A stretch of 64,000 bases of DNA from positions 8,417 to 72,416 of the forward strand of contig JBAYFX010000002.1 of the NCBI GenBank assembly GCA_041666965.1, written 5' to 3'. Shown in pieces: positions 8,291 through 61,571 of this stretch; the stretch's first letter is position 1, and every line of letters starts with the position of its first letter. A program made the position numbers and the translations under genes. This DNA is from Candidatus Shapirobacteria bacterium (lineage in GTDB: Bacteria; Patescibacteriota; Microgenomatia; UBA12405). The notes under the pieces were generated by a model that was not told where the DNA came from, made no database searches, and saw only the letters and a list, made by a program, of their open reading frames with translations.

Positions 8291-8345
8291 TTCAAGCTTA
8301 TTATCTCATGACTTTGTCATTCTGAGGAGCTGGCGACGAAGAATC

Positions 8346-8699: not shown

Positions 8700-8789
8700 G
8701 TTTGTATTATATCAAACTATAACTTTCAATTCCGTCATCTCACACCCTACCCCGCTTTTTAAGTAGATTCACCAATCAGGTTTAGCTTC

Positions 8790-9119: not shown

Positions 9120-9135
9120 TTTCCCGATTATATCA

Positions 9136-11549: not shown

Positions 11550-11551
11550 AT

Positions 11552-12969: not shown

Positions 12970-13006
12970 TAGTTGCATTATTCTATAACCTATAATATAA
13001 TTAACC

Positions 13007-39392: not shown

Positions 39393-39851
39393 TTAAATCT
39401 CAAATCGTTCAATCCGCCCCAGTTTCATATTTTCCCCAAATTTAGACACCAGTTCTTTGATTAAGTCATCAATTTTCCGGCTTGGGTCTTTAATATAATC
39501 CTGAGCCAATAATTCAGTCGCGTCTTTAGGATTCATAGCCGCCACTTGAAGGGCTATTTCTCGGGCTACATTCATAAACTCTTCATTTTTAGCCACAAAA
39601 TCAGTTTCGCAAAGCAACTCTACCATCACCCCAATTTTTCCAGTAGTGTGAGTATAGGTAGCTACTCTCCCCTGCCGGGTTTCCCGGTCAGCCTTTTTCT
39701 CCGCTTTCTCGTAACCTTTCTTTTTTAGTATTTCCATTGTTTTGGCCCTGTCGCCCCCGGCTTCCTCAACCGCTGTCTTAATTTCCATCACTCCAAATCC
39801 AGTCGCTTCCCGAATAACCTTTACTAATTCAATTACTTTTTTGTTGTCCAT
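39393..39851 (-). CDS. tsf: Elongation factor Ts (short form)
   Basis: N-terminal UBA-like segment LVKVIREATGFGVMEIKTAVEEAGGD and a core GRVATYTHTTGKIGVMVEL...DFVAKN. 152 aa. Confidence 0.85.
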   Translation of the reverse strand: MDNKKVIELVKVIREATGFGVMEIKTAVEEAGGDRAKTMEILKKKGYEKAEKKADRETRQGRVATYTHTTGKIGVMVELLCETDFVAKNEEFMNVAREIALQVAAMNPKDATELLAQDYIKDPSRKIDDLIKELVSKFGENMKLGRIERFEI

Positions 39852-39964: not shown

Positions 39965-40885
39965 TTATTTAACCCCAGCCGCTTTAATTGCCCGGCCAAT
40001 TTCCTCAACAATTAATGTCACGGCGTGTACATTATCGTCGTTAGTTGGAATCGCCATGTCAACTATTTCCGGGTTACCGTCAGTGTCCACCATAGCTACA
40101 GTTTTTATTTTCCGCAGTTTGGCTTCCCGAACCGCAGTTTTCTCAAAACCGGCATCCACCAAGAAAATTAAATCAAACAATTTGTCAACATTGCCAATTC
40201 CTCCAACATTTCGCTCGAGTCTGTCAAGTTCTTTGTGAAGTACTGACAATTCTTTTTTGGTTTTGTCGCTGAATTTGTTACCATCCAAACCGTCTTTTAA
40301 ATCCCGATATCTTTTAATGGTTTTTCGAATTTGCTCCCAGTTGGAAATAGTACCACCCAGCCACCGGTCAGTCACATATGGAACTCCGGCGTCAAGCGCT
40401 ACTCTTCGGGTCACTTCACGGGCCATCCTTTTAGTACCTACCATCAATATTTGCTTACCGTTTCTTTTGGCGTTATAAATCATGTCACAAGCCTTCTGTA
40501 AAGCGCCCATGGTTTTAGTTAAGTCAATTATTTCAATTCCGTCTTTGGCGGTGTAAATATTCACTCTGGCTCTTGGATGAGTCTTGCTGACTTTGTGCCC
40601 CAAATGGCATCCGGCCCCAAGCAAGTCTTTAAGTCCAATTGTCAGGTTATATCTTTTGTCCTCAAGTTTTCTTTCTTCTTTTTTAGTTATTTTTACTTCC
40701 TCAGGTTTCGCTTTCTGAGCTTCCAATTTGGTAGCTGCAACTCTGGCTTCATTTAGTTTAGCAATCTGTTCTTTGCTGGTAATCTTTTCAGTCTTTTTCT
40801 CTTTAACAACCAGCGCCGCTTTAGTAATTTTTTTACCGGTGCGGTTGACCGTTTTGACAATTCTTTTTTTGGTGGCTTCTGCCAT
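39965..40885 (-). CDS. rpsB: 30S ribosomal protein S2 with K/E-rich N-terminal extension
   Basis: GAGCHLGHKVSKTHPRA...ILMVGTKR...AGVPYVTDRWLGG S2 core. Sits in the rpsB-tsf-frr order. Confidence 0.9.
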   Translation of the reverse strand: MAEATKKRIVKTVNRTGKKITKAALVVKEKKTEKITSKEQIAKLNEARVAATKLEAQKAKPEEVKITKKEERKLEDKRYNLTIGLKDLLGAGCHLGHKVSKTHPRARVNIYTAKDGIEIIDLTKTMGALQKACDMIYNAKRNGKQILMVGTKRMAREVTRRVALDAGVPYVTDRWLGGTISNWEQIRKTIKRYRDLKDGLDGNKFSDKTKKELSVLHKELDRLERNVGGIGNVDKLFDLIFLVDAGFEKTAVREAKLRKIKTVAMVDTDGNPEIVDMAIPTNDDNVHAVTLIVEEIGRAIKAAGVK

Positions 40886-40980: not shown

Positions 40981-42192
40981 TTAGCTTAATGTCTCACCCA
41001 CCACTGACCTAATTGCTCCAATAACCTGCTGCTCTACATCAGGATTATTCCTACTGCTTCCGTCTTCAAATTTTTCCCATACAGCCGGCTCCGAGCCGAC
41101 AGCATGCACATTAAACAAACGTCCACCCATCGTAACCACCAAAATTCCCCAATCGGCACTCCGGCTTACCCTAATACTTACGCTTATCCCGCCAATAGTT
41201 ACTACCCCGTCTATGTCTTGTCTAGATTCGATAAGCTGATCCCTAACTCTATCTAATAATCCTCTGTCAGCTTTAATTCTTACCTTTTCAACCGCAAACC
41301 TTTGCTCAAGACTGTCCCCTCCGGTAACTATCAGTGGCCGGGTCGGACCTTTAGCATCGACCGCTCCCTCCGCTTTTATCGGTTCCCACACTTTTGTAAA
41401 GTTCTGATCGTCTTTTCTACCACTAAACTCTGCCATCTCCGAACCAAAGAGTCTTATTAATCTCCGCATAGTTTTATTAACCTCGCCCACTGAAAATGTA
41501 TCACTCCCCAATGGTCTAAAAACAACCTCATCATTCACCTGGTTTAATCCCTCTACTTTGAAATTTTTTCCACCATTGTCCAAAACATTCACTCTCGGAT
41601 TATCACCATCACCTCCTTGAATAATTACCATCATCATTTCTCCTCTTCCATCTTCGGTTAGTTGGCAATGTAACACCGTGTGAATACTACCATCTTGGCT
41701 CCTATGCTCTTTACCCCCTAACCTTTGTAATCCGGCTACAATTACTCCAAATCTTGAATCTTCTGGTGTCAAACAAAACTCGCTTCTTGAATTAGTATCA
41801 ACAGTCTTAGCTACCTCTCTTGTCCCCACTGATATTATTTTCGCCTCCGCCGATTTCACTGTTATCTCCTCACCTCCCATTCTCTTTTCAGGTACATAAC
41901 CAGTATCAAGACCTTGCAAACCTTTCGTTTTTCCGGCTGCGCGATTCTTCCTCACCAACTCATCAGTCCAGTTCCAAGCAGACATTCCCCTATCATCCGC
42001 GTCCGCTCCCCCATCTCTCCACCTTAGTCTACTTACTGCTTTAAATATTATTTCACCATTTCCCAAGTTCCTAATTCTAAAAACACCTTGCTCTTGCTCT
42101 CTTTCCTGATATACGATATTTTCATCAATCACCTCCCCCCCAAACCTAACATGATAAACATATTTTTGACCTTCAGGACAATTCTTACACAT
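40981..42192 (-). CDS. Hypothetical protein, island gene (G/E/R-rich, 403 aa)
   Basis: Long uninterrupted ORF with no recognisable motif. Its composition is atypical for the rest of the window. Confidence 0.45.
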   Translation of the reverse strand: MCKNCPEGQKYVYHVRFGGEVIDENIVYQEREQEQGVFRIRNLGNGEIIFKAVSRLRWRDGGADADDRGMSAWNWTDELVRKNRAAGKTKGLQGLDTGYVPEKRMGGEEITVKSAEAKIISVGTREVAKTVDTNSRSEFCLTPEDSRFGVIVAGLQRLGGKEHRSQDGSIHTVLHCQLTEDGRGEMMMVIIQGGDGDNPRVNVLDNGGKNFKVEGLNQVNDEVVFRPLGSDTFSVGEVNKTMRRLIRLFGSEMAEFSGRKDDQNFTKVWEPIKAEGAVDAKGPTRPLIVTGGDSLEQRFAVEKVRIKADRGLLDRVRDQLIESRQDIDGVVTIGGISVSIRVSRSADWGILVVTMGGRLFNVHAVGSEPAVWEKFEDGSSRNNPDVEQQVIGAIRSVVGETLS

Positions 42193-42216
42193 ATGCCAAT
42201 AATATCACAAACTAGA

Positions 42217-42408
42217 TCATGTTTTAACCTTGTTTTCCTCCGTTATGATCAGCCTGGCTTGAGGTAATTCTGGTTTAATCGGAACAATTACTAAACCATT
42301 TGTATCAACTCCTTTTCTCTTCCACCCTCCTAACGGTTCCCATGGTCCTTTTGGTATCTGAAATCCATTATCATTATCTAAAATTTTTTTATAATCATGC
42401 CTTCCCAT
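42217..42408 (-). CDS. Small hypothetical protein (63 aa)
   Basis: Short ORF between island genes. Low support. Confidence 0.25.
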   Translation of the reverse strand: MGRHDYKKILDNDNGFQIPKGPWEPLGGWKRKGVDTNGLVIVPIKPELPQARLIITEENKVKT

Positions 42409-42468
42409 AATTAATTATACTACGCACCCAGTAAGTACACCGTAAAAATTTAATCAGTATTACTACTT

Positions 42469-43059
42469 TTACAAAAGTCCCATTTTCATCATTTGTACGT
42501 TAAATACTCCCATAACCTTAGTTGCTATTTCACTGGCTTTTGTTATCGACATGTCACACAAATTAAAGACCTTGAAACTAGTCAATTGCGCATCTTTCAC
42601 CACAAAACTCAAACCATACCAGTTTTCCCCTGTTCTTACTCTAAGTAAAAACTGATCCTCTACCTTATCCCATTGCGCAACAAATTGATCATCAGGATTC
42701 ATACCAAATATCAAGGAAACACCATTGTAACCAGCCATAGTCAAACTTTTTAATGTGCTACGCATTAGTAAAATCCTATACCAATCATTTTCCCCTATTC
42801 CCGCATCAATCATTTGATTTCTTAATTCATTACTGGTGCCGCTCCATTTTAAAGCTGCTCCGGTTTTATCATATTTAGCTATAGAATAAGTAGGGTCTCT
42901 TAGTCGAATCCCTTCCCCTACAGGGTATGGCAAGCTCCCATCGTCCACAGCCGCCCCAAATCCAAAACATTTTGGGGATAGTTGTACCCCCTTTCCCCAC
43001 AAAGTCGGCCCGTCACTTCCTCTAATCTTACTTTCAATATCTCCAAAACTCATCACCAA
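42469..43059 (-). CDS. Hypothetical protein, island gene (196 aa)
   Basis: ORF preceded by a conserved ATATTATAGGTTTA...TATAAT-N5-ATG architecture shared with the next gene. Confidence 0.45.
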   Translation of the reverse strand: MVMSFGDIESKIRGSDGPTLWGKGVQLSPKCFGFGAAVDDGSLPYPVGEGIRLRDPTYSIAKYDKTGAALKWSGTSNELRNQMIDAGIGENDWYRILLMRSTLKSLTMAGYNGVSLIFGMNPDDQFVAQWDKVEDQFLLRVRTGENWYGLSFVVKDAQLTSFKVFNLCDMSITKASEIATKVMGVFNVQMMKMGLL

Positions 43060-43085
43060 TTATACCATATATAAACCTATAATAT
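43059..43085 (-). promoter_or_regulatory. Conserved promoter-like element upstream of 42469-43059
   Basis: The minus strand reads TAATATATTATAGGTTTATATATGGTATAATTGGTGATG. A TATAAT hexamer sits 5 nt before the ATG, suggesting a leaderless start. The ATATTATAGGTTTA box is shared with 43790-43815. Confidence 0.4.
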
Positions 43086-43103
43086 ATTAAAACTTCTACA
43101 CCC

Positions 43104-43790
43104 TCACCCTAAAGTAGATTGACCATAATAACCATCTTTTCCCGCTAAATCTACTGTAGTTTCTGGATTATTTATTATACTGGGCAACAAAGCCATTATT
43201 TTGTCTATCCCAATTCGTTTTTTACCATTTTCTAATCTAGAATCTCTACCTTCAACTGTAAATTCAACTAACTTACTTCTCTCAAATTTACAGTCCACCA
43301 GTACACTATCAGGATTATCAATTTCACTTACAATCATTCTCAAATTTTTTGTGGAATTATCCCAAAACAGTATTAGTCTATTTCCGCTCTCTCCTATCAA
43401 CTTATTAATTAATGCTGATTCCAATCCTTCAATACGTGAGACCTTATCTTCTAATTTATTTGTTAACCTCATAATCATTTCCCATCTCTCTTGGTTTATT
43501 CCTACTCCCTCCATCATCATAGCCAACCCATAATTATCCATACCTTCCCACAGCTTCGACCACTCTTCTTGTTGCAATGGGCCCCCTACCCCCTGAGTCT
43601 GGTTTTCTACCATATCAGTCAAACCGTGTACAAAAGTCATTGATCCTTCCCCGGGTGGATAACCCCCCACAGTCGGCCGCGTCCAAACACCTATCAATCC
43701 CCATCTTAAAACGAAATCAGCGCCTTGCCCCAAACTCCACTCCCCATCTCCTAATGTGCCCCTTGGGCTCACTTCGTAAATCATCGACAA
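43104..43790 (-). CDS. Hypothetical protein, island gene (228 aa)
   Basis: ORF with the same upstream architecture as the downstream gene. No recognisable motif. Confidence 0.45.
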   Translation of the reverse strand: MSMIYEVSPRGTLGDGEWSLGQGADFVLRWGLIGVWTRPTVGGYPPGEGSMTFVHGLTDMVENQTQGVGGPLQQEEWSKLWEGMDNYGLAMMMEGVGINQERWEMIMRLTNKLEDKVSRIEGLESALINKLIGESGNRLILFWDNSTKNLRMIVSEIDNPDSVLVDCKFERSKLVEFTVEGRDSRLENGKKRIGIDKIMALLPSIINNPETTVDLAGKDGYYGQSTLG

Positions 43791-43815
43791 TTATAGCATA
43801 AGTAAACCTATAATA
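43790..43815 (-). promoter_or_regulatory. Conserved promoter-like element upstream of 43104-43790
   Basis: The minus strand reads AACTAATATTATAGGTTTACTTATGCTATAATTGTCGATG: the same box, a TATAAT, a 5-nt gap and an ATG. Confidence 0.4.
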
Positions 43816-44979
43816 TTAGTTTTTATTATCGTACCACCTAGGCAAGTCCACCCCAAAACACCCAATTACCCCATCACCCTCAACTTCTTTAAACATTGAA
43901 TTAAGATGAACCAGTTTTATCTCTCCTAACCCACCCTCCGTTACACAACAAGACAGCATTTCCACTGCTTTTCTCATTTTTGTTCTTATTCTCCAGTCTA
44001 CCGACTCAACCCCTTTTCCTGTTTGATTCATCAAATTCACTAATACCACCTCTCCCTCCTCATCAAAATTCGCTATTATTTTCCAATTTTCATTTGTAAC
44101 TTTATCTTGAATCACGATTCTTAATATTCTGTCATTTGACTCCCAAGCTCCAATCGCTTTATTAGTTTCTCCGTCTGCTACTAAAATTCCCACATCCGCA
44201 CCCGCATCATAATATAAAGAATTCTCAAGCATCCCTTTTACCCCATAAATCCCATCCAAATCCCCTTGGTTAAAACCCAACCCTTCTAATCTTTTTCTAA
44301 CTTGATATGACGTCCCCTCTTCCCACCCGCCCCCACTCATTTCCTGTTCTTCACGTAACTCAGTTATGTTTTCTTTGGCTGCTTTATGTACTACCTGCCA
44401 CATACTACTCCAATCAAAACCCTCTTTAATATCACCATCTATCTCAGTTACCCTGTCACCCTCAAACCTTACTCTAACTTTTGCTAAAGTTTCACCCTCT
44501 TCTTCTGGCTCCAATTCAATTCTCAAAACTCCATCATCAGCATAACTTGCCAGTAATTTACGGTCCCCTATTCGGTAAGTTAAATATCCAACCTCTCCGC
44601 TCGCCATATCAGTCCCAATTTGTTTTTTTATATCAACCACGCTTAAAAATGCCGCACCCCCCAACTTCATTTCCACCAGCTTACGTTTATCCAATCCACT
44701 AGGTTTCAAAGTCAATGTCTCCGCTTGGGGCATTACTTCACCCTCCACTTTCAGAGTCTCCATAGCTTCTCTAAAGGCCATTTCGTTTTCAATACCTTCC
44801 ATTAAACTCTCCCGGCTTCTCATTGCCCTGGTTACTTCTGGTAATTTTGGTCTTGGTCCGTCCCCCGTCGGATATTCCATTCCTGTTACTCGTGTCCTAA
44901 ATTGACTCAAGCACCCGGCTACTTGCCAACCAAGAGGGTTATACCCTCTCTTTCCTTCACCGCTTTCTATTTTAGCCAT
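43816..44979 (-). CDS. Hypothetical protein, member of island paralog family (387 aa)
   Basis: N-terminal GYNPLGWQVAGC resembles DGLALRPVTGC of the 642-aa protein. Carries a W/E-rich module (AIGAWESNDRILRIVIQDKVTNENWKIIANFDEEGE). Confidence 0.45.
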   Translation of the reverse strand: MAKIESGEGKRGYNPLGWQVAGCLSQFRTRVTGMEYPTGDGPRPKLPEVTRAMRSRESLMEGIENEMAFREAMETLKVEGEVMPQAETLTLKPSGLDKRKLVEMKLGGAAFLSVVDIKKQIGTDMASGEVGYLTYRIGDRKLLASYADDGVLRIELEPEEEGETLAKVRVRFEGDRVTEIDGDIKEGFDWSSMWQVVHKAAKENITELREEQEMSGGGWEEGTSYQVRKRLEGLGFNQGDLDGIYGVKGMLENSLYYDAGADVGILVADGETNKAIGAWESNDRILRIVIQDKVTNENWKIIANFDEEGEVVLVNLMNQTGKGVESVDWRIRTKMRKAVEMLSCCVTEGGLGEIKLVHLNSMFKEVEGDGVIGCFGVDLPRWYDNKN

Positions 44980-45251
44980 TAGTTACTTGGGTGGTACATG
45001 CCCACCCTTGCCCCTAATTTAACTGCATAATCGATTAGGAGTAAATCATCTGTCACCCTGAGTCCCTTTAAATTCAGTTGTATGTCACCTCCACCTCTTG
45101 GTTGTGGTAAATCTGCCACTACCAACTCAGTTGTCAACCCATATTCACCAATACACTTTCGGCAGGCGTCAACCGGCTCTCTTCTCCCCCCTGCTTCCAC
45201 CACCGCCAATCCAACTCCGATTTCAGTTTTGCAAAATGTACATTTACTCAT
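44979..45251 (-). CDS. Zn-ribbon small protein (CxxC...CxxC), island gene
   Basis: 90 aa. CTFCKTEIG...ACRKCIGEYG. Translationally coupled to its flanking genes (1-2 nt junctions). Confidence 0.4.
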   Translation of the reverse strand: MSKCTFCKTEIGVGLAVVEAGGRREPVDACRKCIGEYGLTTELVVADLPQPRGGGDIQLNLKGLRVTDDLLLIDYAVKLGARVGMYHPSN

Positions 45252-45253
45252 AA

Positions 45254-46246
45254 TTAATTCAAATTTAAATTTATAATTCGTCCATTAGTTACAACTGTAT
45301 CTTCCTTCCCCCCATAAACTCCAAACCTATCAACTTTACTTGGATCAACCCATCCCAAGTCAGGTTTAGGGTCATCTACAAATTCAAAGACCGGAATCTC
45401 TTCTTTCTGTGTCTTCTCTTGTTCTAGTTCTACTACTTTCCAATCAGAAGTAACCAACCCGCAAATCAGACCTGTTTCAGCTCCCTCTTCTCCCAGTTCT
45501 CCGCCCTCAGCCTCTTCAATTATCTCAATTCCCCTAATACTCTCCGCTTCTCCGTACTCCATTAAGTGGTTCAAAAAACTACTCACTATTCCTCTTTGAA
45601 CCTCATCAGGCAAACTACCCGCCTGGGTAATAAACGCAAATGCCTCAACTTCCCCGCTCTCACCAAACCCAAAGCTAATCCCAAAATCTTCCATCGAGTC
45701 GTCACTCCAAACAACTGCCAAAGTCCCCTCCGCCCTATCCCACATCACCGAAGCATCAAAACTTCCAGCAGCTAAAAATGCACAGGCGACCTGCTCCATA
45801 CCATTAAGCGCTTTGCCTAATTCCTTCTTAAAATACAATATTCTGGCCCAACTTTCCGGACCAAACCCAAATCCTTCCATCTCCGTTCGGAAATCCCCCA
45901 GCTTCCTCCATTCAATTTCCCTTTCAATTACCTTCAAGCCTTCGTATTTGGGCATATCCGTTACCGGTACTCCCATTCCGGCATAAACGCACAACGATTC
46001 TTCCCAAACTCTAAAAGCCTCTTCCATTTTTAAAAACCGCACTGGCAATACCGGGTCAATCCCTTCCTTCTCCCTCCTGAACCCTACTCCCTTCAGACTC
46101 TCTCCAGTTGCGCCCCCCCCTGCCACGTCCATAACTAACTGCGAATATGGCCTCAACGCCACTCCATCATGACCCTCCCTCCTTTCACTTTTATCTTCAC
46201 CTCTTATTTCTTTTTCTAAATCTCCCATCAGTTTCTCCCCCACCAA
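45254..46246 (-). CDS. Hypothetical protein, member of island paralog family (330 aa)
   Basis: N-terminus MVGEKLMG...DGVALRP parallels MGEKKMG...DGLALRP of the 642-aa protein. Shares the GFGPESWARILYFKKEL motif. Confidence 0.45.
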   Translation of the reverse strand: MVGEKLMGDLEKEIRGEDKSERREGHDGVALRPYSQLVMDVAGGGATGESLKGVGFRREKEGIDPVLPVRFLKMEEAFRVWEESLCVYAGMGVPVTDMPKYEGLKVIEREIEWRKLGDFRTEMEGFGFGPESWARILYFKKELGKALNGMEQVACAFLAAGSFDASVMWDRAEGTLAVVWSDDSMEDFGISFGFGESGEVEAFAFITQAGSLPDEVQRGIVSSFLNHLMEYGEAESIRGIEIIEEAEGGELGEEGAETGLICGLVTSDWKVVELEQEKTQKEEIPVFEFVDDPKPDLGWVDPSKVDRFGVYGGKEDTVVTNGRIINLNLN

Positions 46247-48156
46247 CTACTAATAACTAATCTAGGAGCAAGTTCTTTTATTGTAATTCTTTGCAAACTT
46301 TTCTCACCCATAACACCCCTTAATTCCCAATCAACTGGAAATTCACCTTTGGTCGTGTCATCCACTCTTTTCTCCTTTTTGGGAATAACTTCACAACTCC
46401 AATCATCCTGTTTTGCCGCCATTTCCCCCAATAGTGCCAACCCCATACCCACTTTTCTATTTTGCCACCTTTTTCCCTTTCCCTCTGTTAGTTCCATATC
46501 CCACGCCGCCAATTCTCCACTTTCGTCAAACATAAAATGTAACCTATGTACTTCTTCCCCCTTTCTCCAACCTACCTCTACAAACCCCGGCTTTTCCCCG
46601 CTTACCCAAACCGTATGTTTTCTCAGTTCTGTTTTCAGTTTTATTACTGTACCCTCTGGCTCGTTTATCAAACTTTTTTCAATCCCTCCGGCCATTACCA
46701 CTAAGTCGTACCACCGCTCATGAGTAAACCCCGCCTCCTCCAAAGCTTGCTGAAACTCCCCTACTTTGCTCCAAACCACACCTAGTTGGCTCTCCAGTTT
46801 CTTGTCATTACCTTTATTTAATCCAATTACCCACGACCCTTTAGCTCTGAAAATTTTTGAAGTTAATGTTTCTTCACAAAAGTAATTTGGTTCTGCCTCA
46901 AGAGGTTCGTTTTTAGGTCTAAATCCCCAAAACTTTGCTTCGTGATTTTTCTCCACCCAGCACCGTCCTCCGTCCCTTTCCTCAACCCTAGGTCTCCTCT
47001 CTGCTCTAGGCCCCACTTCTTCCAGCTCAACCAAATTAATATCAATATTCGTCTCTTCCGTCTTCATTAGTCGCATTATGGCCCTTACCTCACCAATTCC
47101 TTCCACCCATTCATCTTTTGGGTACTCTTCACCGTTCCTTTCCACCGTTAACATCGCCAAGTCACCCGCCTTGTCAAACATAAAAGTCAGTGTCTTTTCC
47201 TCACCCTGCCCCGCCCTGTCCCAAATCAGTGTCAACCGGCATTTTCCTTGTTCCCACTCCAACCCAATTACCTTTTCTCCAATGGTAATCTCTCCCACTG
47301 CCATTTTATTACTCTCACCTACAAGTTTAGCTTCCCCAATATCTTTTAGATGAAGTACGTTTACCCAATCTTCGTGTTCAATACCGCAGTCATTTAACAA
47401 CTGCTGTCTTTTACCAACATTTTCCCAAGTCTCAGGCTCCCCTTCACCTAATTGGTCAACTACCAAAGTTCCTTCAGTTGCTAACTGCTGTTCGGTAAAT
47501 GCTCCAATGTCATAAATCAAACTACTTCTGTCCACCTTCTTCATTTTGGCAAGTAATTTCTCTATAACAGTTTTTCTTGTTTCTAAGTCTCCTACCGACT
47601 CTGTGTCAATTTGCAAATCCAAGCACTCAAAGCCACCTTCTTTGCTAAAGCCAATACACAACGAATGCCATCTCAACTCCTCATTATTCCAAAAAATATT
47701 TAGCGAACTCTCGTCCACATCCCATTGAGCCCCCACCTCTTCTCTATTAATCCTTAAATTCCCACTAGAAATAATTTGTTTTTTGTCGCTATCAATAACT
47801 ATCCTTAACTCTTGGCGTAAATACAACACATCCGCCCAAGCTTCCCGGTCAAAGCCGTTTTTCACCAATTCCTCTCCCGCTTTAGTTCCCTTCATTTGAT
47901 CCCAACTACTACTAAAGTCATTTTCTGTCCGATATGGCCATCTGGTCCAAGGCACTTCGTCTCCTCCATGGGCCGCCAAACAAAACTGTACATCTACTCC
48001 CCAAGACTGCTCAAGGTCCGCAATTATTCTTGGAAACAAGTCACTAGAATATGCCGATTCAGCCCCCGGTTCCAATGCTTCCCTAACACATCCCGTTACC
48101 GGTCTGAGCGCCAAACCATCATTCCCCTCAACCCTGCCCATTTTTTTCTCCCCCAT
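46228..48156 (-). CDS. Hypothetical repeat protein, largest member of island paralog family (642 aa)
   Basis: Three internal copies of a ~150-aa module marked by G(F/I)xHExW..VL.L and W...R.L.hhFDe.GE. No known domain. Confidence 0.45.
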   Translation of the reverse strand: MGEKKMGRVEGNDGLALRPVTGCVREALEPGAESAYSSDLFPRIIADLEQSWGVDVQFCLAAHGGDEVPWTRWPYRTENDFSSSWDQMKGTKAGEELVKNGFDREAWADVLYLRQELRIVIDSDKKQIISSGNLRINREEVGAQWDVDESSLNIFWNNEELRWHSLCIGFSKEGGFECLDLQIDTESVGDLETRKTVIEKLLAKMKKVDRSSLIYDIGAFTEQQLATEGTLVVDQLGEGEPETWENVGKRQQLLNDCGIEHEDWVNVLHLKDIGEAKLVGESNKMAVGEITIGEKVIGLEWEQGKCRLTLIWDRAGQGEEKTLTFMFDKAGDLAMLTVERNGEEYPKDEWVEGIGEVRAIMRLMKTEETNIDINLVELEEVGPRAERRPRVEERDGGRCWVEKNHEAKFWGFRPKNEPLEAEPNYFCEETLTSKIFRAKGSWVIGLNKGNDKKLESQLGVVWSKVGEFQQALEEAGFTHERWYDLVVMAGGIEKSLINEPEGTVIKLKTELRKHTVWVSGEKPGFVEVGWRKGEEVHRLHFMFDESGELAAWDMELTEGKGKRWQNRKVGMGLALLGEMAAKQDDWSCEVIPKKEKRVDDTTKGEFPVDWELRGVMGEKSLQRITIKELAPRLVISSWWGRN

Positions 48157-49183
48157 TTTTTATAAACGCATCTAATGCCAACACTAATTGGGGTACTTCC
48201 GCCATTAATCGCAATCTTTCAACTAAACTCATTGGTTTTGTGCCTCTATTAGCTACAAATTTCACCGCACTCTCCTCTCGTATATCAAATTTCTCTTTTG
48301 TTTTACCTACCTTAAAACACATTTGAAATCCTCCCGGTCTGCCATCCAGCGTGCTCGAAATCATCAGGGTTGTCTCGCCCCCCTCAAACTGCCCCAACCA
48401 TAGTCCTCTTGCCTCACTTTCCGTTACTTTAATAGCCATCCCTCTGCCTCCGTCCTCATCTGGTGGCAAATCCTCCAAATTCACCACTAAATCTTCTAAA
48501 TGTTCACGACCAGACAGTTCCATTCCTCTATTGTCCTGAGCCGAGGTCTTTTCTTCTTCCCGTCCCATTTCAGCCAATAATTCTGGAATCCAAGCCAAAA
48601 TCGCTACTTTTTCTCCCCGACACAATTCCCTCTTTTCACCTGTAGGGGTTGCTAATTCATAGCATTCTCCTTCAACATATTTTAATCCCTCCCCCTCCCC
48701 CCTTTTAATCCCAAGAACCATTCGCTGTTCACTTTCACCCTTATTTACTGTAATTTCAATTCGACTTCTTCTTTTTGTAGTTACGTCCATAAAGGCTCGA
48801 ACCCCAATCTCCCCGGCTTGTAACTCCACCTCAGTTCTTTTTCCGTCTTCTTCTTCTAGAAGCCTTCCAGTCATGGCTTGGGCCAGGTCATTAATCCACT
48901 CCTGTTCAACCCCTCCTCTCCTTATCTCAGGATCAACCTCATCTCGTAGACCCCAAACCACTGTCATAATACGAGTCACTAATTCTCCTTCTATTGGTAC
49001 AGCTCCATTAAGTGCCGCCTCCCGAAACCCACCTCTGAAAAAAGTAGTGCCAGATCCATGTTCTGGTGTGTCTAATAGAAAAAGATTTCGCGTCCCCTTA
49101 CCAATTTCACCCGCCCCCGTCTTCAATCCATCATCATTTTTTAGTGTTCTACCTTTTCCAATATTTCGGAAATACTCAGCCAC
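48128..49183 (-). CDS. Hypothetical protein, first gene of island operon (351 aa)
   Basis: GTG start preceded by AAAGGAAC (an SD-like sequence). E/G/R-rich. Overlaps the next gene by 29 nt. Confidence 0.45.
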   Translation of the reverse strand: MAEYFRNIGKGRTLKNDDGLKTGAGEIGKGTRNLFLLDTPEHGSGTTFFRGGFREAALNGAVPIEGELVTRIMTVVWGLRDEVDPEIRRGGVEQEWINDLAQAMTGRLLEEEDGKRTEVELQAGEIGVRAFMDVTTKRRSRIEITVNKGESEQRMVLGIKRGEGEGLKYVEGECYELATPTGEKRELCRGEKVAILAWIPELLAEMGREEEKTSAQDNRGMELSGREHLEDLVVNLEDLPPDEDGGRGMAIKVTESEARGLWLGQFEGGETTLMISSTLDGRPGGFQMCFKVGKTKEKFDIREESAVKFVANRGTKPMSLVERLRLMAEVPQLVLALDAFIKNGGEKNGQG

Positions 49184-49385
49184 TCCGGTTCCTTTGCTTT
49201 AAACCCAATAAATTATTACGTTCCATAATCCGGTTGAATATAAGCACTAATTTTTTGCCCGTGTAATCTATCCCTGTTTGGTCCACAAACTCCGCTAACA
49301 TTCAAGGATTGTGAAAGTGTTCCCTGGTAAACAATTATTCCCATCTCAACTCCGGTAGTTTCTCTTCCCTTTTTTAAACAGATAT

Positions 49386-50000
49386 TTGACATTGTTTTGT
49401 TTTAAAATCCGGGTTCTTGTGTTGTGTGTTGCTTGTGTTTGTTTTGTTTTTTGTTGGCTTGGTTTGTGCCCTTGGCCGCTTTTCCCGCCTGTCGGCGGGA
49501 CGGCATCTCGGGCATCGCCGCTTCTTTGTGTGCGCCCAAGCCACCGTCCCGCCTGCTTTTACGTCGTCGTTACCTCCTCAGGTAGACCTTGCTTGGCACG
49601 GCATTCTGGACATAACTTCCGTCCATAGACCCTGCGTCCGCATCCACCTTGGCACCAGCACCCGTTTTTGCAACGAGTAGAGTCTGACGCCCTTCGACGA
49701 CGCTTTTCCTCAGCCGGCTGTTTGTTGGGAGACATGGTGTCGCCCTCCTTTGAGCGACCCTATACGAGGGGGGTTGGGGAAAGACATTTGTGGCGATTCG
49801 GGAAACCCGAATCGGGGGGCGCAACAGCGCCGAAATCCAACTCGCAAAACTTCAGCGAATGGAACCCAAACGACTCCGGCTCTACCGGAACCCTTTGGGG
49901 TCCATCCACTAACAATCTATTCTTTTCTTCTAGCGCTCTAGCGTACTCTCGTACCAGCGAACTAACGTACTATTTTTACAAGAACCCGGATTGTTAATGA
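49386..50000. other. GC-rich (~57%) structured noncoding element, candidate large ncRNA or cis-regulatory/recombination structure
   Basis: No coherent ORF; only mutually overlapping short frames on both strands. GT-rich 5' part. Nested inverted repeats GGCGGGACGG(49497)/CCGTCCCGCC(49544) and ACGTCGTCG(49559)/CGACGACGC(49693). Hairpin CGATTCGG-GAAA-CCGAATCG at 49794-49814, followed by GGCGC-AACA-GCGCC. Confidence 0.5.
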
Positions 50001-50158
50001 ACCTTCCAGGGCTCCCTCCCAAGCGTTATGGGACTTCACCTTAAAATTACCCCATAATATAAACTCAATTTAATAAATTTGCAAGCACCAAAAGCCCATT
50101 TTTCAGACGTAAAAGAAGTTTGTAACAATTTAGTAAGAAATACTACTTAATATATCTT

Positions 50159-50374
50159 TTATCCTATATTTCCATTCCTCTTATTATTTGTCTTTCTGTG
50201 CTTTACCTCTTCCCAATGTTTTAACGACTGTAAATCAGCACCGTCCACACTATATATTCCCAAATTCATCCGACAGCGCCAGCAAAGAGCCCACTCTTCA
50301 CCGTTTGCCAATTTTGCCACCACCTTAAGCGGTTTGTAATGTCTACACCCAGGACAAAATTCTAAAACCGCCAT
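50159..50374 (-). CDS. Zn-ribbon small protein (71 aa)
   Basis: CPGC...CWRC four-Cys arrangement with a basic tail. Confidence 0.4.
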   Translation of the reverse strand: MAVLEFCPGCRHYKPLKVVAKLANGEEWALCWRCRMNLGIYSVDGADLQSLKHWEEVKHRKTNNKRNGNIG

Positions 50375-50392
50375 AATTAATCATACTCTCCC

Positions 50393-50860
50393 CTACCCCT
50401 CAATCGTCCACAACCTTACTGTATTCCTACGGACTAAGTCACTAATTCCAAAACTCTCATCCGGGTCAACCTCTTTCCATTGCCGGGGTAAAAACACTCC
50501 AAAAGGCTGGGGCCACAAATATGCCCCCACCCAAAAAATAACCGGATCCTCCCGAGCGATTATATTTATTTCTGTCATTGACCAGGTTTTACTCATTAGA
50601 GCAATCTGTCTCAATTGAGGCCATATTCCCCCATCCACTCGATACTTATAACTTCCAGTTAAACTATATTTAAAACTCGGTTCTGCTACTTTTTGAACTG
50701 AAATCAAACTGGGACGGACTATTGGCACTTCCGTTATATTAATCCTCAATACCTGCCAAGGATAAACCTGCAGCACATCTCTTTTTTCCAACATCGGCGA
50801 ATATAACTCAAATAAATAAACTTTTAGTAAATAAATCAACCGACTTTGCTCTATACTCAT
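50393..50860 (-). CDS. Hypothetical protein (155 aa)
   Basis: ORF with no motif. The GGGGTAGGGGAGAGT motif lies at its 3' flank. Confidence 0.35.
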   Translation of the reverse strand: MSIEQSRLIYLLKVYLFELYSPMLEKRDVLQVYPWQVLRINITEVPIVRPSLISVQKVAEPSFKYSLTGSYKYRVDGGIWPQLRQIALMSKTWSMTEINIIAREDPVIFWVGAYLWPQPFGVFLPRQWKEVDPDESFGISDLVRRNTVRLWTIEG

Positions 50861-50862
50861 TT

Positions 50863-53007
50863 ATGTCCGACATGGGCTTAACTTTTCTTGAAGTACGTTT
50901 GCCTCAAACCAATGAGTTTCCCCTGGAAGCCATGAGTTCTCTTCTGTCTAATTTTAGCGGGGCTGTCTCCCGTGGGTTTGTTGACCGAATTTTTGGCCGT
51001 TTTCCCGTCATTTCTTCTTTGGAAGTTGTCTTAAGTGGTAACCTTATTCGCTTCTTTCTCGTCACCCCCACCAGCCGCTCGGAATTTATCAAAAACCAAA
51101 TTTTGGCCCAGTACCCCAGTGCCCTCCTTCGAGAGTCTACAGATGATTACCTGCCTCAAGTTTTTGCCCCCTCCCAACTTGTTTTATCCCGCTCCTACGA
51201 CTATCCGCTCAAAACCAGTAAGGATTTTAGAGACATTGATCCTTTTTCCTCCATTCTCTCTCCTCTGGCTCGCTCTACTTCTGCCACCGATTTCTTTCTT
51301 TATCAAATACTTCTCTCCCCCGCCCCAGACAATTGGCAATCATCTATTACCTCCATCATTCAAAACGGAATTTTGGTTGATTCCGCCAAGAACTTCCGCC
51401 AGTCCCACCCCGACAAAGCCGTCTTTGAGCAAAAAATCCAGTTCCCCGGTTTAACTGCACAAATCAACATAGCTTCCACTTCCCCGGGCCTTCTTTCAGC
51501 TTTCAGCTCCAGCTTCGGGGTTTATACCAATCCCCGGGGAAACATCATTAAATCCTCTTCTCCTGGTCCTTTTAGCCGCTCTAAACTCACCAAATCCATC
51601 ACTACCCGCCGCCTTTTAGGCCGCCGATTAATCCTCAACACCGAAGAATTAGCCGTCCTCTGGCATTTACCTAACAAATACACCAAAATCCCCAACATTG
51701 CCTGGGGCCAAAATTTGTATGCCGACCCTCCGGAAAACCTACCGGTCTCCGATGGCGCCACCGACGAGCAAAAACAAAACATCAACTTTTTTGCCCGTAC
51801 CGACTTCAAAAACCGTAGTGCCATTTTTGGCATCAAAGAAGGCGAGGACCGCCGCCGTCACACCTATATTATTGGTAAGTCCGGTACTGGTAAAACTACC
51901 CTCATTTCCAATATGGCCATCGATGACATTCGTAAAGGCCGGGGAGTTGCCATCATCGACCCTCACGGCGATCTTTGCCAAACCATTCTCGATTATATTC
52001 CTGCCCACCGCGCCAACGACTGCTGTTATTTCAATCCGGCCGACCCCGATTACGCTTACCCTCTAAATGTTTTAGAAGCTCAAAACGATTCTCAGCGGGA
52101 GCTGGTAGCCTCTGGGGTCATTTCCATTTTCAAAAAACTCTACGGTAACATTTCCTGGGGTCCCCGCCTCGAACATATCCTGCGCAACGCCGTCTTAACT
52201 CTTGTTAATGTTCCAGGCTCAGACTTGTCCCACATTGTCGAAATTTTAACTAATAAAACCTTCCGGCAAAAGATCGTTCCTCAGTTAACCAACCAAACTC
52301 TTAAAAACTTCTGGATCAACGAGTTTGACCAAATGGACCCAAAGTTCCAAAACGAAGCCATTGCTCCAATTTTAAATAAGGTTGGCCAGTTCATATCAAG
52401 CAGTAACATCCGTAACACCGTCGCCCACCCCGTCTCCAAGGTTCGGATTCAAGACATCATGGACCAAAAAAAGATTCTTATTGCCGACCTGTCTACCGGT
52501 AAGCTAGGCGAGGACAACTCAGCCTTACTCGGCGCCATGTTAATCACCCAAATCCAACTTTCGGCCATGAACCGGGTATTTCAGGCCCAAGAGGAGCGCT
52601 CCGACTTTTATTTATATGTTGATGAATTCCAAAATTTCGCCACCGAAGCTTTCATCAAAATTCTGTCCGAAGCCCGCAAGTTCCGCCTTAACCTAATTAT
52701 CGCCAACCAGTACATGAGTCAGCTTGAGCGTCCCATTCAGGACGCGATTTTTGGCAACGTCGGCTCCCTAATTGCCTTTGTGGTGGGTAATCAGGATGCT
52801 TTCATCTTAAGTAAAGAATTCGGCCCCAATTTTCCCCCCGAAGATTTGGTCAAAATCGGTAAATACCAAATCATTTCCAAACTCAGCATCGATTCAGCTA
52901 CCACCGAACCCTTCTATGCTCACACTTTAGCTCCACCCGACTGTAAAAACCAAGGCCGCGACAAACTCATCCGCAATTCCCAGGAACGCTGGGGTAAACG
53001 TAAATAA
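50863..53007 (+). CDS. TraD/VirD4/TrwB-like P-loop ATPase (type IV coupling-protein-like), apparently cytoplasmic
   Basis: Walker A IIGKSGTGKTTLISN, IIDPHGDL, Walker B-like YLYVDEFQNF, and ARKFRLNLIIANQYMSQL resembling the TraD/TrwB ARKYG...QS.SQL block. No N-terminal TM segments. Confidence 0.6.
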   Translation: MSDMGLTFLEVRLPQTNEFPLEAMSSLLSNFSGAVSRGFVDRIFGRFPVISSLEVVLSGNLIRFFLVTPTSRSEFIKNQILAQYPSALLRESTDDYLPQVFAPSQLVLSRSYDYPLKTSKDFRDIDPFSSILSPLARSTSATDFFLYQILLSPAPDNWQSSITSIIQNGILVDSAKNFRQSHPDKAVFEQKIQFPGLTAQINIASTSPGLLSAFSSSFGVYTNPRGNIIKSSSPGPFSRSKLTKSITTRRLLGRRLILNTEELAVLWHLPNKYTKIPNIAWGQNLYADPPENLPVSDGATDEQKQNINFFARTDFKNRSAIFGIKEGEDRRRHTYIIGKSGTGKTTLISNMAIDDIRKGRGVAIIDPHGDLCQTILDYIPAHRANDCCYFNPADPDYAYPLNVLEAQNDSQRELVASGVISIFKKLYGNISWGPRLEHILRNAVLTLVNVPGSDLSHIVEILTNKTFRQKIVPQLTNQTLKNFWINEFDQMDPKFQNEAIAPILNKVGQFISSSNIRNTVAHPVSKVRIQDIMDQKKILIADLSTGKLGEDNSALLGAMLITQIQLSAMNRVFQAQEERSDFYLYVDEFQNFATEAFIKILSEARKFRLNLIIANQYMSQLERPIQDAIFGNVGSLIAFVVGNQDAFILSKEFGPNFPPEDLVKIGKYQIISKLSIDSATTEPFYAHTLAPPDCKNQGRDKLIRNSQERWGKRK

Positions 53008-58540: not shown

Positions 58541-59607
58541 TGACCCATTACCTCCAACTGTCTGGCTAATCCCTGATCATCAAGTAATTTTGCCAATCCC
58601 CGAATTACGGCCCGATCCGGTTCTGCCACCTTAAGGCAACTTATTTTTAACTCTGATTCAATTTGTTCTCTTAAGCCATATTGCAAACTGGCTCCACCTA
58701 CTAAAACAATTCCCCGCCTAGTAACTTGAGCCATTATTTCCGGAGGTGCCTGATCCGCCAATGACTTAATGTTCTTAGTGATTTTTGTCAATTCTAAGGC
58801 TAGGGCTTCCCCAATTTCCCCCCGGTCCACTTTAATACTCACCGGTAATCCTGATTCCAAACTCCTCCCCCGTACCACTGTTTTTTCCCCCGCTTCAATT
58901 TTTCCCAGCTCCTCTCTCGCCCGCCGAGCCGTTACTAGACCAATCAATATCCCATATTTAATTTTAATAAAATTTATTATTGCCTGGTCCATAGTATCCC
59001 CACCTACATTTAGTTTTTTTGACAACACAATTCCCCCCCCCGATACCAAGCTCATTTCAGTTTTCCCCGCACCTACGTCTACTACCAACCCCTCAATATT
59101 ATTTTTAATACTGCTTACGCCTAAAAGCGCCGCCGCCGCTTGGTTAATAAAAGTCAACTTCCCACCACCCGATGCCTCAAACACTCCCTTTATTGCCCGC
59201 CTCTGAACATTCGACATTTCATAAGACACACCTACCACTCCCCGGGTCTTCAAAATTGCCGGATACCGGGTAGGAACACTTCCTAGTTTCTTAAAAAACC
59301 AGGAAACCAGCATTGTTAAGCCGCTTAAGTCCTGAATTTCTCCGCCCATCATCGGCCACACTACTTCCACTTTCTTAGGCTCTTTCTCCTGCATTATTGC
59401 TGCCTTGTCCCCATAAGCTACTACCACTGCCCTTTTCTGCCACCGCTTTTTTTTAATTCGAGCTAAAGCACTGGCTTCTTCCACCACAATTCCCCTCTCA
59501 GCCAAGTAAATCAATGACACCTTAGATCCCAAGTCCAGTGCCAACCTCATTCGGAAACGATCAACCGTTTCCATCCATTTTTCTTTAACTTGACTTATGC
59601 CTACCAT
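58537..59607 (-). CDS. mreB: Rod shape-determining protein MreB (actin-like ATPase)
   Basis: LALDLGSKVSLIYLAERGIVVEE phosphate-1 region and LVVDVGAGKTEMSLVSGGGIV phosphate-2 region. Confidence 0.8.
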   Translation of the reverse strand: MVGISQVKEKWMETVDRFRMRLALDLGSKVSLIYLAERGIVVEEASALARIKKKRWQKRAVVVAYGDKAAIMQEKEPKKVEVVWPMMGGEIQDLSGLTMLVSWFFKKLGSVPTRYPAILKTRGVVGVSYEMSNVQRRAIKGVFEASGGGKLTFINQAAAALLGVSSIKNNIEGLVVDVGAGKTEMSLVSGGGIVLSKKLNVGGDTMDQAIINFIKIKYGILIGLVTARRAREELGKIEAGEKTVVRGRSLESGLPVSIKVDRGEIGEALALELTKITKNIKSLADQAPPEIMAQVTRRGIVLVGGASLQYGLREQIESELKISCLKVAEPDRAVIRGLAKLLDDQGLARQLEVMGQ

Positions 59608-59651
59608 GTCTTATTCTAAAACACATTAGCCCACTCTCCTATAATTACCTT

Positions 59652-61571
59652 ATGACCAAATTATATTATCTTTTGTTTCTAGTTACTCCGCTTTTGTTTT
59701 TTACCCTAAACTCTGAGGTTTTCGAAGTTCCCAAAATGTATTTTGTTTACCTACTGACCCTTCTAATCCTTGCCCGCCATCTTTGGGGTTATCTTAAAGG
59801 AAGGCATCCTCTTTATCTGCCTCACCCCCTTAATCTCCCTCTATCCCTATTTTTTCTAAGTCAACTTATATCTACCCTAATTTCCACTAATCCTACCCTT
59901 TCCTGGTTTGGTTACTATTCCCGATTAAACGGCGGTCTGCTGTCCACCCTCGCTTACCTATTGTTATTTATCATCGCCGTCGTTCATTTCACCCCTTCCT
60001 CATTTTTCCATCTCTTGCACCGCTCTACCCTACTCGCCTCACTTCCGATTGTCACCTATGCTCAGGCTCAACATTTTGGTATCGACTCAAATTACTGGGT
60101 CCAGGACGTCAAGGCTCGGGTCTTCTCAACTTTTGGTCAACCCAACTGGTTGGCTACATATCTCGGTGTAGTTCTGGCCTTCTCTTTAAGTCAAATCAAC
60201 TTACCGGACAATACTTTTATTCGCCGTCTTTCTTCACTCTATCCAATCCTAATCATTATTGCCATTATTTTCACCCAATCAAAAACTGGTTTAACCGCCA
60301 CTGCTTTAGTAATCGGTTTAACCTTTATATTACAAATCGGTAAAACTAAACTATGGCAACTTCTAAGCTACCCGTTTCTATTCTTTTTCCTTCTCTTAAT
60401 TACTCCCAATTTTATTACCCAAAAGCTTTTTCCCGCTTCCCCCGCTGCCGGTACTCAAGTTCCTCCAACTCAGAATGTCACTTCAAGTGGCGACATTCGC
60501 CTTATTGTTTGGCAAGGTGCACTTTCTCTTTGGCGCCAATACCCTCTTTTTGGTACTGGTCCGGAAACTTTTGCTGATACTTATTATTGGGTTCGCCCCA
60601 TCTCCCACAACCTTACCTCTGAATGGGACTTTCTTTACAACAAAGCCCATAATGAATATTTAAATTACGCCGCCACTACCGGTACTTTTGGTATTTTGGC
60701 CTATTTGTCGGTTTTACTGTTCACCCTTATTTTAATCATCCGCTCCCAACAGTACACCCTGCTAACTGCCTACCTCTGTCTTTTAGTCAATCACGCCACT
60801 GGCTTTTCCATCGTCATTAGTGCTCTCTATTTATTTCTCATTCCCGCCGCCATTTCCTGGCCCAAACCAGCCCCCACTCCACTCTCCAAACCAAATCATT
60901 TAGTCTACCTACCCCTGTTTCTGGTCATTGTCTTTTTACTACCCAAAGTTGTGCTTTTTTACCTCTCAGATCTCTACTATGCTCAAGCTTTAAAGCAATC
61001 AAGCGCCGGTCAATACCCAAGTGCCCTCACCCAAATCGAGCTGGCTACGTCCCTTCGGCCAAATTTCCCTGAATACCTCATTAATCTTTCGGTCATTTCC
61101 GCCCAAAATGCCCTGTCTACCACCGACGCCGCACTTCAAAATAAATACTACCAAGCCGCCATTTCAGCCTCTGATAAGGCGCTAGTTTTGTCTCCCAGCA
61201 GCATTAATTACTGGAAATTATCTGCTCAAACCAGCTATTATCTTAAAGATTTTAATCAAAACTTGCTCAAACAAGCCACCACCCGGCTCATTAATGTGTC
61301 CAAGCTAGCCCCCACCGACGCCCGTTTATTCTTTTTAATTGGCGAGTTCCAGCTAGAACTTAAGGATTATTCTGCCGCCCAAAAGAGTTACCAGACAGCA
61401 CTCAACCTCAAATCCAACTACGACCATGCTTCCTTTCGTCTAGCTCAAATTTATTTCTTAAATAAAAAATTCCCCCAGGCTAAAAATATGTTGGAGTTAA
61501 CCCTACGTTTGGCTCCATCCAATATAGACGCCAGAGATTTATTAAATAAAATACCCGCCAATACTAACTAA
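59652..61571 (+). CDS. Polytopic membrane protein (O-antigen ligase/Wzy-like) with C-terminal TPR repeats
   Basis: About 10 TM segments in the N-terminal 400 aa. C-terminal TPR-like helices (AQKSYQTALNLKSNYDHASFRLAQIYFLNKKFPQA). Confidence 0.45.
   Translation: MTKLYYLLFLVTPLLFFTLNSEVFEVPKMYFVYLLTLLILARHLWGYLKGRHPLYLPHPLNLPLSLFFLSQLISTLISTNPTLSWFGYYSRLNGGLLSTLAYLLLFIIAVVHFTPSSFFHLLHRSTLLASLPIVTYAQAQHFGIDSNYWVQDVKARVFSTFGQPNWLATYLGVVLAFSLSQINLPDNTFIRRLSSLYPILIIIAIIFTQSKTGLTATALVIGLTFILQIGKTKLWQLLSYPFLFFFLLLITPNFITQKLFPASPAAGTQVPPTQNVTSSGDIRLIVWQGALSLWRQYPLFGTGPETFADTYYWVRPISHNLTSEWDFLYNKAHNEYLNYAATTGTFGILAYLSVLLFTLILIIRSQQYTLLTAYLCLLVNHATGFSIVISALYLFLIPAAISWPKPAPTPLSKPNHLVYLPLFLVIVFLLPKVVLFYLSDLYYAQALKQSSAGQYPSALTQIELATSLRPNFPEYLINLSVISAQNALSTTDAALQNKYYQAAISASDKALVLSPSSINYWKLSAQTSYYLKDFNQNLLKQATTRLINVSKLAPTDARLFFLIGEFQLELKDYSAAQKSYQTALNLKSNYDHASFRLAQIYFLNKKFPQAKNMLELTLRLAPSNIDARDLLNKIPANTN

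Follow-up and report, generated by a model that had tools for sequence, protein, structure and literature searches.

Putative leaderless promoters of the extended −10 type and a conserved upstream box at two ORFan genes of a Candidatus Shapirobacteria genome

Extended −10 promoters (TGnTATAAT, or the −16 TRTG form of Gram-positive bacteria) work without a −35 contact. In the lambda PRM promoter with cI bound at OR2, and in the T4 middle promoters with their MotA box, a good −10 element lacking a functional −35 is combined with a protein-binding box at about −27 to −30; the lambda cI mRNA is leaderless. Group C of the GeneMarkS-2 classification (Mycobacterium, Streptomyces, Deinococcus) is characterized by a −10 box 6–8 nt before the start codon of first genes, without a Shine-Dalgarno (SD) sequence (PMC6028130). 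This pattern was described mainly for Actinobacteria and Deinococcus, and the Candidate Phyla Radiation (CPR)/Microgenomates are not mentioned (PMC6028130). Bidirectional promoters contain a symmetric −10 element in which positions 2 and 6 of the opposite-strand hexamers pair (Warman et al.; bioRxiv 10.1101/2020.01.31.928960), and such promoters are reported to be overrepresented in DNA gained by horizontal transfer (bioRxiv 10.1101/2020.01.31.928960). Here we analysed a stretch of 64,000 nt (the window) from a Candidatus Shapirobacteria (CPR/Microgenomates) metagenome-assembled genome (MAG; ENA assembly ERZ27249449, locus tags WCT01_). Two adjacent ORFan genes in it, encoding proteins of 226 and 194 aa, are each preceded by a promoter-like cassette that consists of an upstream box and the string TATAAT-N5-ATG. 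A first-pass annotation of this DNA had proposed that the two genes are independently transcribed, probably leaderless and controlled by a common factor.

Both minus-strand strings quoted in that annotation were found base for base, each reading ATATTATAGGTTTA, 7 nt, TATAAT, 5 nt and ATG (Table 1; cassette coordinates are read on the minus strand, larger number first). The observation was confirmed to be correct and non-random. The ATG was indeed the third codon of the mechanically called, TTG-initiated open reading frame (ORF) of both genes, and it is also the start chosen by the public NCBI gene calls. As had been stated, no SD-like run was found before either ATG, and the gene at 49183 is preceded by AAAGGA; both genes carry sequence features of group C starts, namely a −10 box at a fixed 5–8 nt upstream, no SD and an AUG start. 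Immediately before the ATG stand TGTCG (226-aa gene) and TGGTG (194-aa gene).

The same architecture was observed in a sister genome (L002), which came from the same sample (ERZ27249449) and whose rpsB is 94% identical. The L002 cassettes read ATATTATAGGTTTA, GGTATGT, TATAAT, CGGCC, ATG at the 226-aa gene and ATATTATAGGATTG, ATTGTGA, TATAAT, CGGCG, ATG at the 194-aa gene, so that TGnTATAAT-N5-ATG is retained at both. Because no other in-frame start lies between the TAA within TATAAT and this ATG, the ATG 5 nt downstream must be the start. In all four cassettes the hexamer is preceded by TGn (TGC and TGG here, TGT and TGA in L002), which makes it an extended −10; each consists of TATGn or TGTGn followed by a perfect TATAAT, with no −35. 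A consensus scan for TTGACA-like hexamers with at least 4/6 matches at 16–18 nt from the −10 returned none in either cassette of the window, the best score being at most 3/6. The two next genes downstream, both overlooked in the earlier reading, begin likewise (Table 1). No intrinsic terminator was detected between the upstream operon and the two genes, or among these genes, and read-through transcripts may coexist with transcripts from internal promoters at the two genes.

It was found that this kind of start is widespread in the lineage. Where 0.7 occurrences of exact TATAAT-N5-ATG are expected in the window, 10 were counted, and 15 of its 53 perfect TATAAT hexamers are followed after 5–8 nt by the start of an ORF of 50 aa or more. 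The first ATG of ORFs follows TAnAAT at preferred distances, with a sharp peak at 5–7 nt (19/80 ORFs in the window, 42/254 in relatives), the other spacings mostly having ∼0–2 ORFs each (up to 8 in relatives). A promoter model was built from 53 leaderless-type sites of 14 Shapirobacteria loci. It reads tTGnTAnAAT-N5/6-ATG, and 35 of the 53 sites have T at −3 and 31 have G at −2; it holds no −35 information, and a slight A/T enrichment is seen between −19 and −14 relative to the hexamer. A canonical −35/−10 promoter was rejected for the cassettes, as the −35 was absent both in the consensus scan and in the 53-site model. Judged by its sequence, TGn before the hexamer is a signature of recognition by polymerase, not by the ribosome.

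Housekeeping and other genes have the same start, among them those for a XerC/D-type recombinase, HtrA, CysRS, RseP, MreB, an O-antigen-ligase-like protein and Fmt. At the divergent pair of mreB (59607) and the gene at 59652, only 44 bp separate the two ATGs (59605–59654), and at a divergent pair in a relative (L014, 21544–21580) the distance is 31 bp. Each ATG of both pairs is 5–6 nt from an outward-facing −10, which gives compact back-to-back leaderless promoters; divergent intergenic regions of 31–44 bp leave no space for leaders. Operon-internal genes, island ones included, carry GGAG instead. The proposal of independent, leaderless transcription therefore stood in one respect, since sequence and comparative support was obtained for an own −10 promoter at each gene, but the arrangement is no mark of the island and represents the general start architecture of the lineage. 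That each of the two genes has its own promoter and that the mRNA is probably leaderless can be regarded as well supported by these sequence comparisons. No explicit description of leaderless gene starts in CPR was found in the literature searched.

What sets the two cassettes apart is the box. The exact 14-mer ATATTATAGGTTTA occurs within the window in the two cassettes only; two identical 14-mers in 64 kb, taken alone, are unremarkable. With the −10 hexamer as the reference for aligning the 24 nt upstream, 18/24 positions were identical between the two cassettes, and among 1378 pairwise comparisons of the 53 leaderless-type promoters every other pair with at least 16/24 identities was orthologous. 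The box-to-hexamer register is identical in all four cassettes, and no promoters but those of these two genes have the box in this register. At the 194-aa gene, 28/36 cassette positions are the same in L002, including 11 contiguous ones (TATATTATAGG). The surrounding DNA is 40–55% identical to L002 and the protein 26–27%, compared with 85–90% in core genes. The box of the 194-aa gene thus looks like a clean footprint, suggesting that it has been kept by selection. At the 226-aa gene, the box starts with the final A of the TAA stop codon of the preceding 387-aa gene. It is contained in a block of 36 nt, including the end of that gene, with 100% identity to L002, and is therefore less informative. 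A shared motif at one register in at least two promoters, conserved in the orthologues, is what is expected of an operator, and this is what was found. The box is conserved over 11–14 bases and is the only unusual part of these promoters; its role is unproven.

The core of the box, TATTATA, is symmetric: the gene (minus) strand has TATTAT, the opposite strand carries a perfect TATAAT (CCTATAAT), and hexamer positions 2 and 6 are base-paired. On the plus strand both box copies read TAAACCTATAATAT, and in copy 2 the perfect TATAAT is at 43809–43814. No internal dyad or direct-repeat symmetry was found in the box beyond ATTATA/TATAAT. The 11-mer ACCTATAATAT has four exact copies in the window versus 0.07 expected, all of them intergenic, with two in the cassettes and two outside the island (Table 1). 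The first-pass annotation had placed the core three times at 3812–3856. Two exact copies of CCTATAAT were located there (3860–3853 and 3843–3836, minus strand), while the third proved to be CCTATAAA (3820–3813). The link of these copies to the box was only partly borne out: the reverse-complemented 11-mer is present at 3861–3851 only, and the orientation is opposite to that of the box on the gene strand. CCTATAAT also precedes the gene at 59652. At the island head, the −10 of the canonical promoter is embedded in TATATTATGGG, a 10/11 match to the box core TATATTATAGG. The layout of the cassettes, ATTATA-N13-TATAAT, resembles the intergenic region of a divergent leaderless pair minus one gene.

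The search for further copies that had been suggested was performed on the 64-kb window, and the 11-mer did recur, but neither of its two extra copies lies at the box's distance from a gene start. When the metagenome collection was scanned for TATTATAGG-N8-TGnTATAAT-N5-ATG, L002 was retrieved again together with a few unrelated low-GC sequences, and no other match came from the contigs of this lineage. Several of the unrelated matches were plainly due to chance, one lay inside a phage-like ORF, and two stood before real-looking ORFs. The same composite pattern gave nothing in viral contigs. Two unrelated Joint Genome Institute (JGI) contigs with a GC content of 32–34% carry the composite TATTATAGG-N8-TGnTATAAT-N5-ATG in intergenic DNA (L016, 3903–3936; L017, 6483–6516), directly before the first ATG of a 130-aa and a 210-aa ORF, respectively, the search design precluding any judgement of enrichment.

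Table 1. Positions of the cassettes, their genes and related elements in the window
Feature	Position	Strand	Remarks
ORFan island, ∼10 kb	40981–50860	−	between TraD/VirD4/HerA-like ATPase gene (50863–53007, +) and rpsB (39965–40885)
226-aa ORFan gene, NCBI WCT01_00905	43104–43784	−	ATG start; L002 orthologue 55% identical
194-aa ORFan gene, NCBI WCT01_00900	42469–43053	−	L002 orthologue 26–27% identical
Box copy 2, ATATTATAGGTTTA	43816–43803	−	5' of 226-aa gene; L002 copy identical at 9969–9982
Cassette 2 spacer CTTATGC	43802–43796	−	TGn at 43798–43796
Cassette 2 TATAAT	43795–43790	−	followed by TGTCG 43789–43785 and ATG 43784–43782 (226-aa gene)
Box copy 1, ATATTATAGGTTTA	43085–43072	−	5' of 194-aa gene
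Cassette 1 spacer TATATGG	43071–43065	−	TGn at 43067–43065
Cassette 1 TATAAT	43064–43059	−	followed by TGGTG 43058–43054 and ATG 43053–43051 (194-aa gene)
Third leaderless-type start, TATAAT-TAATT-ATG	42419–42406	−	63-aa ORF 42217–42408; without box; L002 has TAAAAT-AAATA-ATG at the same place
Fourth leaderless-type start, TGaTATTAT-TGGCAT-ATG (N6)	42207–42190	−	403-aa gene 40981–42192
Canonical promoter TTGCAA-17 nt-TATATT	50084–50056	−	island head; conserved in L002
ACCTATAATAT, extra copy	12988–12998	+	20 nt past tRNA-His; overlaps TATAAT-N5-ATG (forward −10) of ORF 13007–13279
ACCTATAATAT, extra copy	3861–3851	−	heads three tandem CCTATAA[AT] boxes; gene-free stretch 3303–3985

From the observed motifs, their register and conservation and the promoter architecture, we infer that each of the two genes and the next two would possess its own extended −10 promoter (TRTGnTATAAT, no −35) for the housekeeping sigma factor. 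With this promoter 5 nt before the ATG, the transcript would begin at or next to the start codon and be translated as a leaderless mRNA, which would be the normal mode of expression for first genes in this Shapirobacteria lineage. The box, (T)ATATTATAGGT, would be a separate, selected cis-element positioned 20 bp (two helical turns) upstream of the −10 hexamer. We tentatively favour, at somewhat less than even chances, the explanation that such an extended −10 leaderless promoter is combined with the box as a second, back-to-back site for RNA polymerase. The TATTATA of the box would then be a second polymerase binding site, and the cassette a bidirectional core promoter like the divergent regions of 31–44 bp. 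This assignment was made because TATTATA fits the symmetric −10 of bidirectional promoters, because ACCTATAATAT serves as the predicted forward −10 before ORF 13007 and CCTATAAT stands before the gene at 59652, and because the box matches at 10/11 positions the −10 of the TTGCAA-N17 promoter of the island. Transcription from the outward-facing site would run antisense into the upstream gene from its 3' end. The site could aid the leaderless promoter through supercoiling coupling or, as there are no terminators between the genes, by blocking read-through from the upstream genes.

Several points weigh against this explanation. Leaderless initiation was deduced from the nucleotide sequence alone. 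A −10 element needs fewer bases than the 11 contiguous ones that are conserved, among them TA and GG on its flanks, and for four exact 11-mers where 0.07 are expected, a sequence-specific protein is a better fit than sigma by itself. The outward-facing TATAAT has no TGn of the kind usual in this lineage. On the plus strand downstream of the box, no ORF, Rfam family or recognisable RNA was seen, and an antisense product is not obvious. The exact spacing in four cassettes could also reflect common descent rather than function.

Control of the two genes by a common factor was not supported in the form in which it had been put forward and stays a hypothesis, because the core is a symmetric −10 and the 11-mer stands at two unrelated intergenic sites; on this sequence evidence, RNA polymerase may be as good a candidate for such a factor as a dedicated regulator. 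The corresponding alternative, unlikely in itself yet judged nearly as likely as a polymerase site, is that a sequence-specific DNA-binding protein of the host or the island uses the box as its operator and co-regulates both leaderless promoters. At about −33 to −20 the box would replace the −35, and the bound protein would either block polymerase or act as a class II/MotA-type (or cI-like) activator; a further target of the protein could be the closely matching sequence that covers the −10 of the promoter at the island head. Candidates for such a regulator are several small Zn-ribbon ORFs of the island, among them those at 50159–50374, 49559–49735 and 44979–45251. The retention of 11 contiguous bases in a diverged background and of one register to the −10 in four cassettes agrees with an operator, as do the fourfold, always intergenic occurrence of the 11-mer in 64 kb (0.07 expected), the resemblance of the three tandem CCTATAA[AT] boxes at 3813–3860 to a site array, and the 10/11 match over the −10 of the island head promoter. 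Nevertheless, the box lacks dyad or direct-repeat symmetry beyond the −10 hexamer, no DNA-binding domain was recognisable in any island protein, the strict composite pattern was found nowhere else in the metagenome contigs of the lineage, the extra 11-mer copies are out of register with gene starts, and the motif is fully accounted for as a symmetric −10 element.

It is rather improbable that the box has no function and merely descends from a common ancestral promoter, by tandem duplication of gene and promoter, or from gene conversion, leaving an A+T-rich spacer that has not diverged. The two proteins do share collinear weak motifs, so that ancient paralogy is conceivable, the 226-aa box lies in the 36-nt identical block and says little about the box, and A/T richness at −19 to −14 from the hexamer is a general trait of promoters in this lineage. 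Yet the 194-aa box was conserved while its flanks, spacer and coding sequence diverged to ∼50%, and the 11-mer exists at two unrelated loci as well. The proteins are moreover not detectably homologous, which implies that any duplication would be far older than neutral DNA could survive. Least probable of all, and in our view a very long shot, is that TATAAT-N5-ATG acts in RNA, for translation from a polycistronic read-through mRNA of the upstream operon. The A/U-rich segment before the ATG would then be an SD-independent signal (S1-type or unstructured-region), and the box and the −10 might pair as a hairpin. The absence of a terminator between the genes, the short intergenic gaps of 24–60 nt and the inverted repeat ATTATA(G)...(C)TATAAT inside the cassette would suit this idea, but the predicted hairpins were no stabler than shuffled sequences (z of −1.1 to +1.0), and a box/−10 RNA hairpin was rejected as its energies were indistinguishable from those of shuffles. 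The conserved TGn/TRTG 5' of the hexamer is a polymerase signature, the same signal is used at divergent pairs and after large intergenic gaps where there is no upstream transcript, and operon-internal island genes use GGAG.

Three further candidates for the cassettes were rejected on inspection. A sigma-54 promoter (−24/−12, GG...GC) was discarded as the GC is present in one cassette only, with a spacing one base short, and is not conserved. A promoter of a T7-like single-subunit polymerase (TATAGG) misfits in length and in its upstream part, and for a dif/Xer site the inverted partner arm is absent.

The two genes belong to an island of ORFans. L002, where the block spans 4300–12300, was its sole other carrier. 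In 12 other Shapirobacteria/Patescibacteria genomes (L004–L015) the ATPase gene (70–73% identity) and rpsB are adjacent or a few kb apart, rpsB directly abutting the ATPase gene in several of them, and the block is absent, which indicates a real island at a variable spot. Within the island, the pair of genes for 637 and 324 aa (45300–48200) could not be aligned with the single 519-aa gene of L002, nor the 403-aa gene (41000–42100) with its 218-aa counterpart, and the neighbours of these genes are 85–90% identical. The island pattern points to very fast turnover or cassette replacement.

For the 226-aa protein no Pfam, PHROG, PADLOC or NCBIfam match was obtained, and a profile search against 1.84 billion representatives returned only the L002 orthologue and a weak match to a CARDB repeat. 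Its AlphaFold2 model was of low confidence (predicted local distance difference test score, pLDDT, of 57), and no significant fold match to the PDB was found for it. Among 5.8 billion proteins, the 387-, 226- and 194-aa proteins had relatives only in this genome and L002. Tandem duplication of the 226- and 194-aa genes was rejected (BLASTP E of 0.66, hhalign probability 0.7%); the two proteins share YPxGEG (residues 42–48) and a loose W..G..N...M..GI...W (∼residues 70–110), which are collinear. A segment of ∼190 nt in the 226-aa gene (43474–43662) is 96–100% identical to L002, and the rest of the gene is 60–80% identical; this mosaic suggests recent recombination between two co-occurring populations.

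The island proteins encoded at 48128–49183, 46228–48141, 45254–46228, 43816–44979, 43104–43784 and 42469–43053 are soluble, mostly acidic, Gly/Glu-rich and without transmembrane segments, and the proteins of the block gave zero matches to Pfam, PHROGs, PADLOC and NCBIfam. The 637- and 324-aa proteins have the N-terminal G.DG[LV]ALRP in common, and several others begin with a similar Gly-rich DG...L..G. This Gly-rich N-terminal segment may be a common tag next to the coupling-protein-like ATPase.

The head of the island (49184–50158) is a region of ∼1 kb without called genes that opens with the canonical TTGCAA-17-TATATT promoter. It contains the conserved hairpins GATTCGGG-TTT-CCCGAATC and CCCGCC-GACA-GGCGGG. 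A long C/A-rich tract, likewise conserved, is also present, as are ORFs for small basic Zn-ribbon (CxxC) proteins at 49559–49735 (SD AAAGGAGGG) and 49216–49392. No Rfam match was obtained for this region, and across the whole window the only known RNA families were two tRNAs. The other gene-free stretch, of 680 nt at 3303–3985, lies beside a XerC/D-type recombinase gene and holds the tandem CCTATAA[AT] boxes with TTTCACATA repeats; it had no Rfam match, and its folding was no better than that of shuffles (z −0.6).

Some general features of the window were also observed. Most genes are on the minus strand and the coding strands are very G-rich; the GC skew is extreme and uniform, with values for 2-kb bins that range from −0.04 to −0.51 and, for roughly three bins in four, are lower than −0.25. 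Ribosomal protein S2 (39965–40885) has an N-terminal extension of ∼87 aa before the Pfam domain, which is conserved in relatives, and EF-Ts (39393–39851) is only 152 aa long.

The leaderless interpretation of the two genes is sound but describes the default of the lineage; no new mechanism is added, and the interest of the locus in itself is modest. Its wider meaning is that many genes of a CPR lineage whose ribosomes are reduced (MreB, CysRS, Fmt and RseP among them) appear to be expressed leaderless from −35-less extended −10 promoters, which bears on initiation by the minimal CPR translation apparatus. Such a regime was not documented for CPR in the literature searched. Gene-start annotation of CPR MAGs is affected, as the ATG starts are correct here and the mechanical TTG starts are not. 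The analysis defined ATATTATAGGT as a short conserved cis-element, directly testable as a site for polymerase or a regulator in organisms with hardly any known regulation, and delimited a rapidly diverging ORFan island at a hotspot between the TraD/HerA-like ATPase gene and rpsB. More speculatively, and with considerable doubt, the box might belong to a type of dedicated control element that has so far no description in CPR, either the operator of a small regulator governing the fast-evolving ORFan island or an outward-facing promoter maintained to insulate tandem leaderless genes that lack terminators; in Shapirobacteria, expression might for the most part depend on extended −10 promoters without a −35, and roughly one gene in three might be leaderless.

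Compared with group C, the starts of this lineage are similar in that the −10 is close to the start codon of putative first genes (5–6 nt here), SD sequences are missing, operon-internal genes keep their SD and roughly a quarter to half of the transcription units are affected. They differ in the low-GC CPR/Microgenomates host, in the TGn that usually precedes the hexamer and in the absence of a −35 signal, and the starts here are predicted from sequence. Extended −10 promoters are elsewhere a minority class; in this lineage they appear as the default and are fused directly to the start codon. Like bidirectional promoters, the box TATTATA has A2 and T6 of the hexamers on both strands paired, in agreement with TAnnnTA; unlike them, the box is not the gene's own −10 but a second element 13 bp upstream, and the predicted divergent starts are ∼38 bp apart, not 18. 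With lambda PRM and the T4 MotA promoters, in which no similarity to the box was seen at OR or the MotA boxes and for which no cI-, MotA- or AsiA-like protein was found here, the cassettes share an analogy of layout only.

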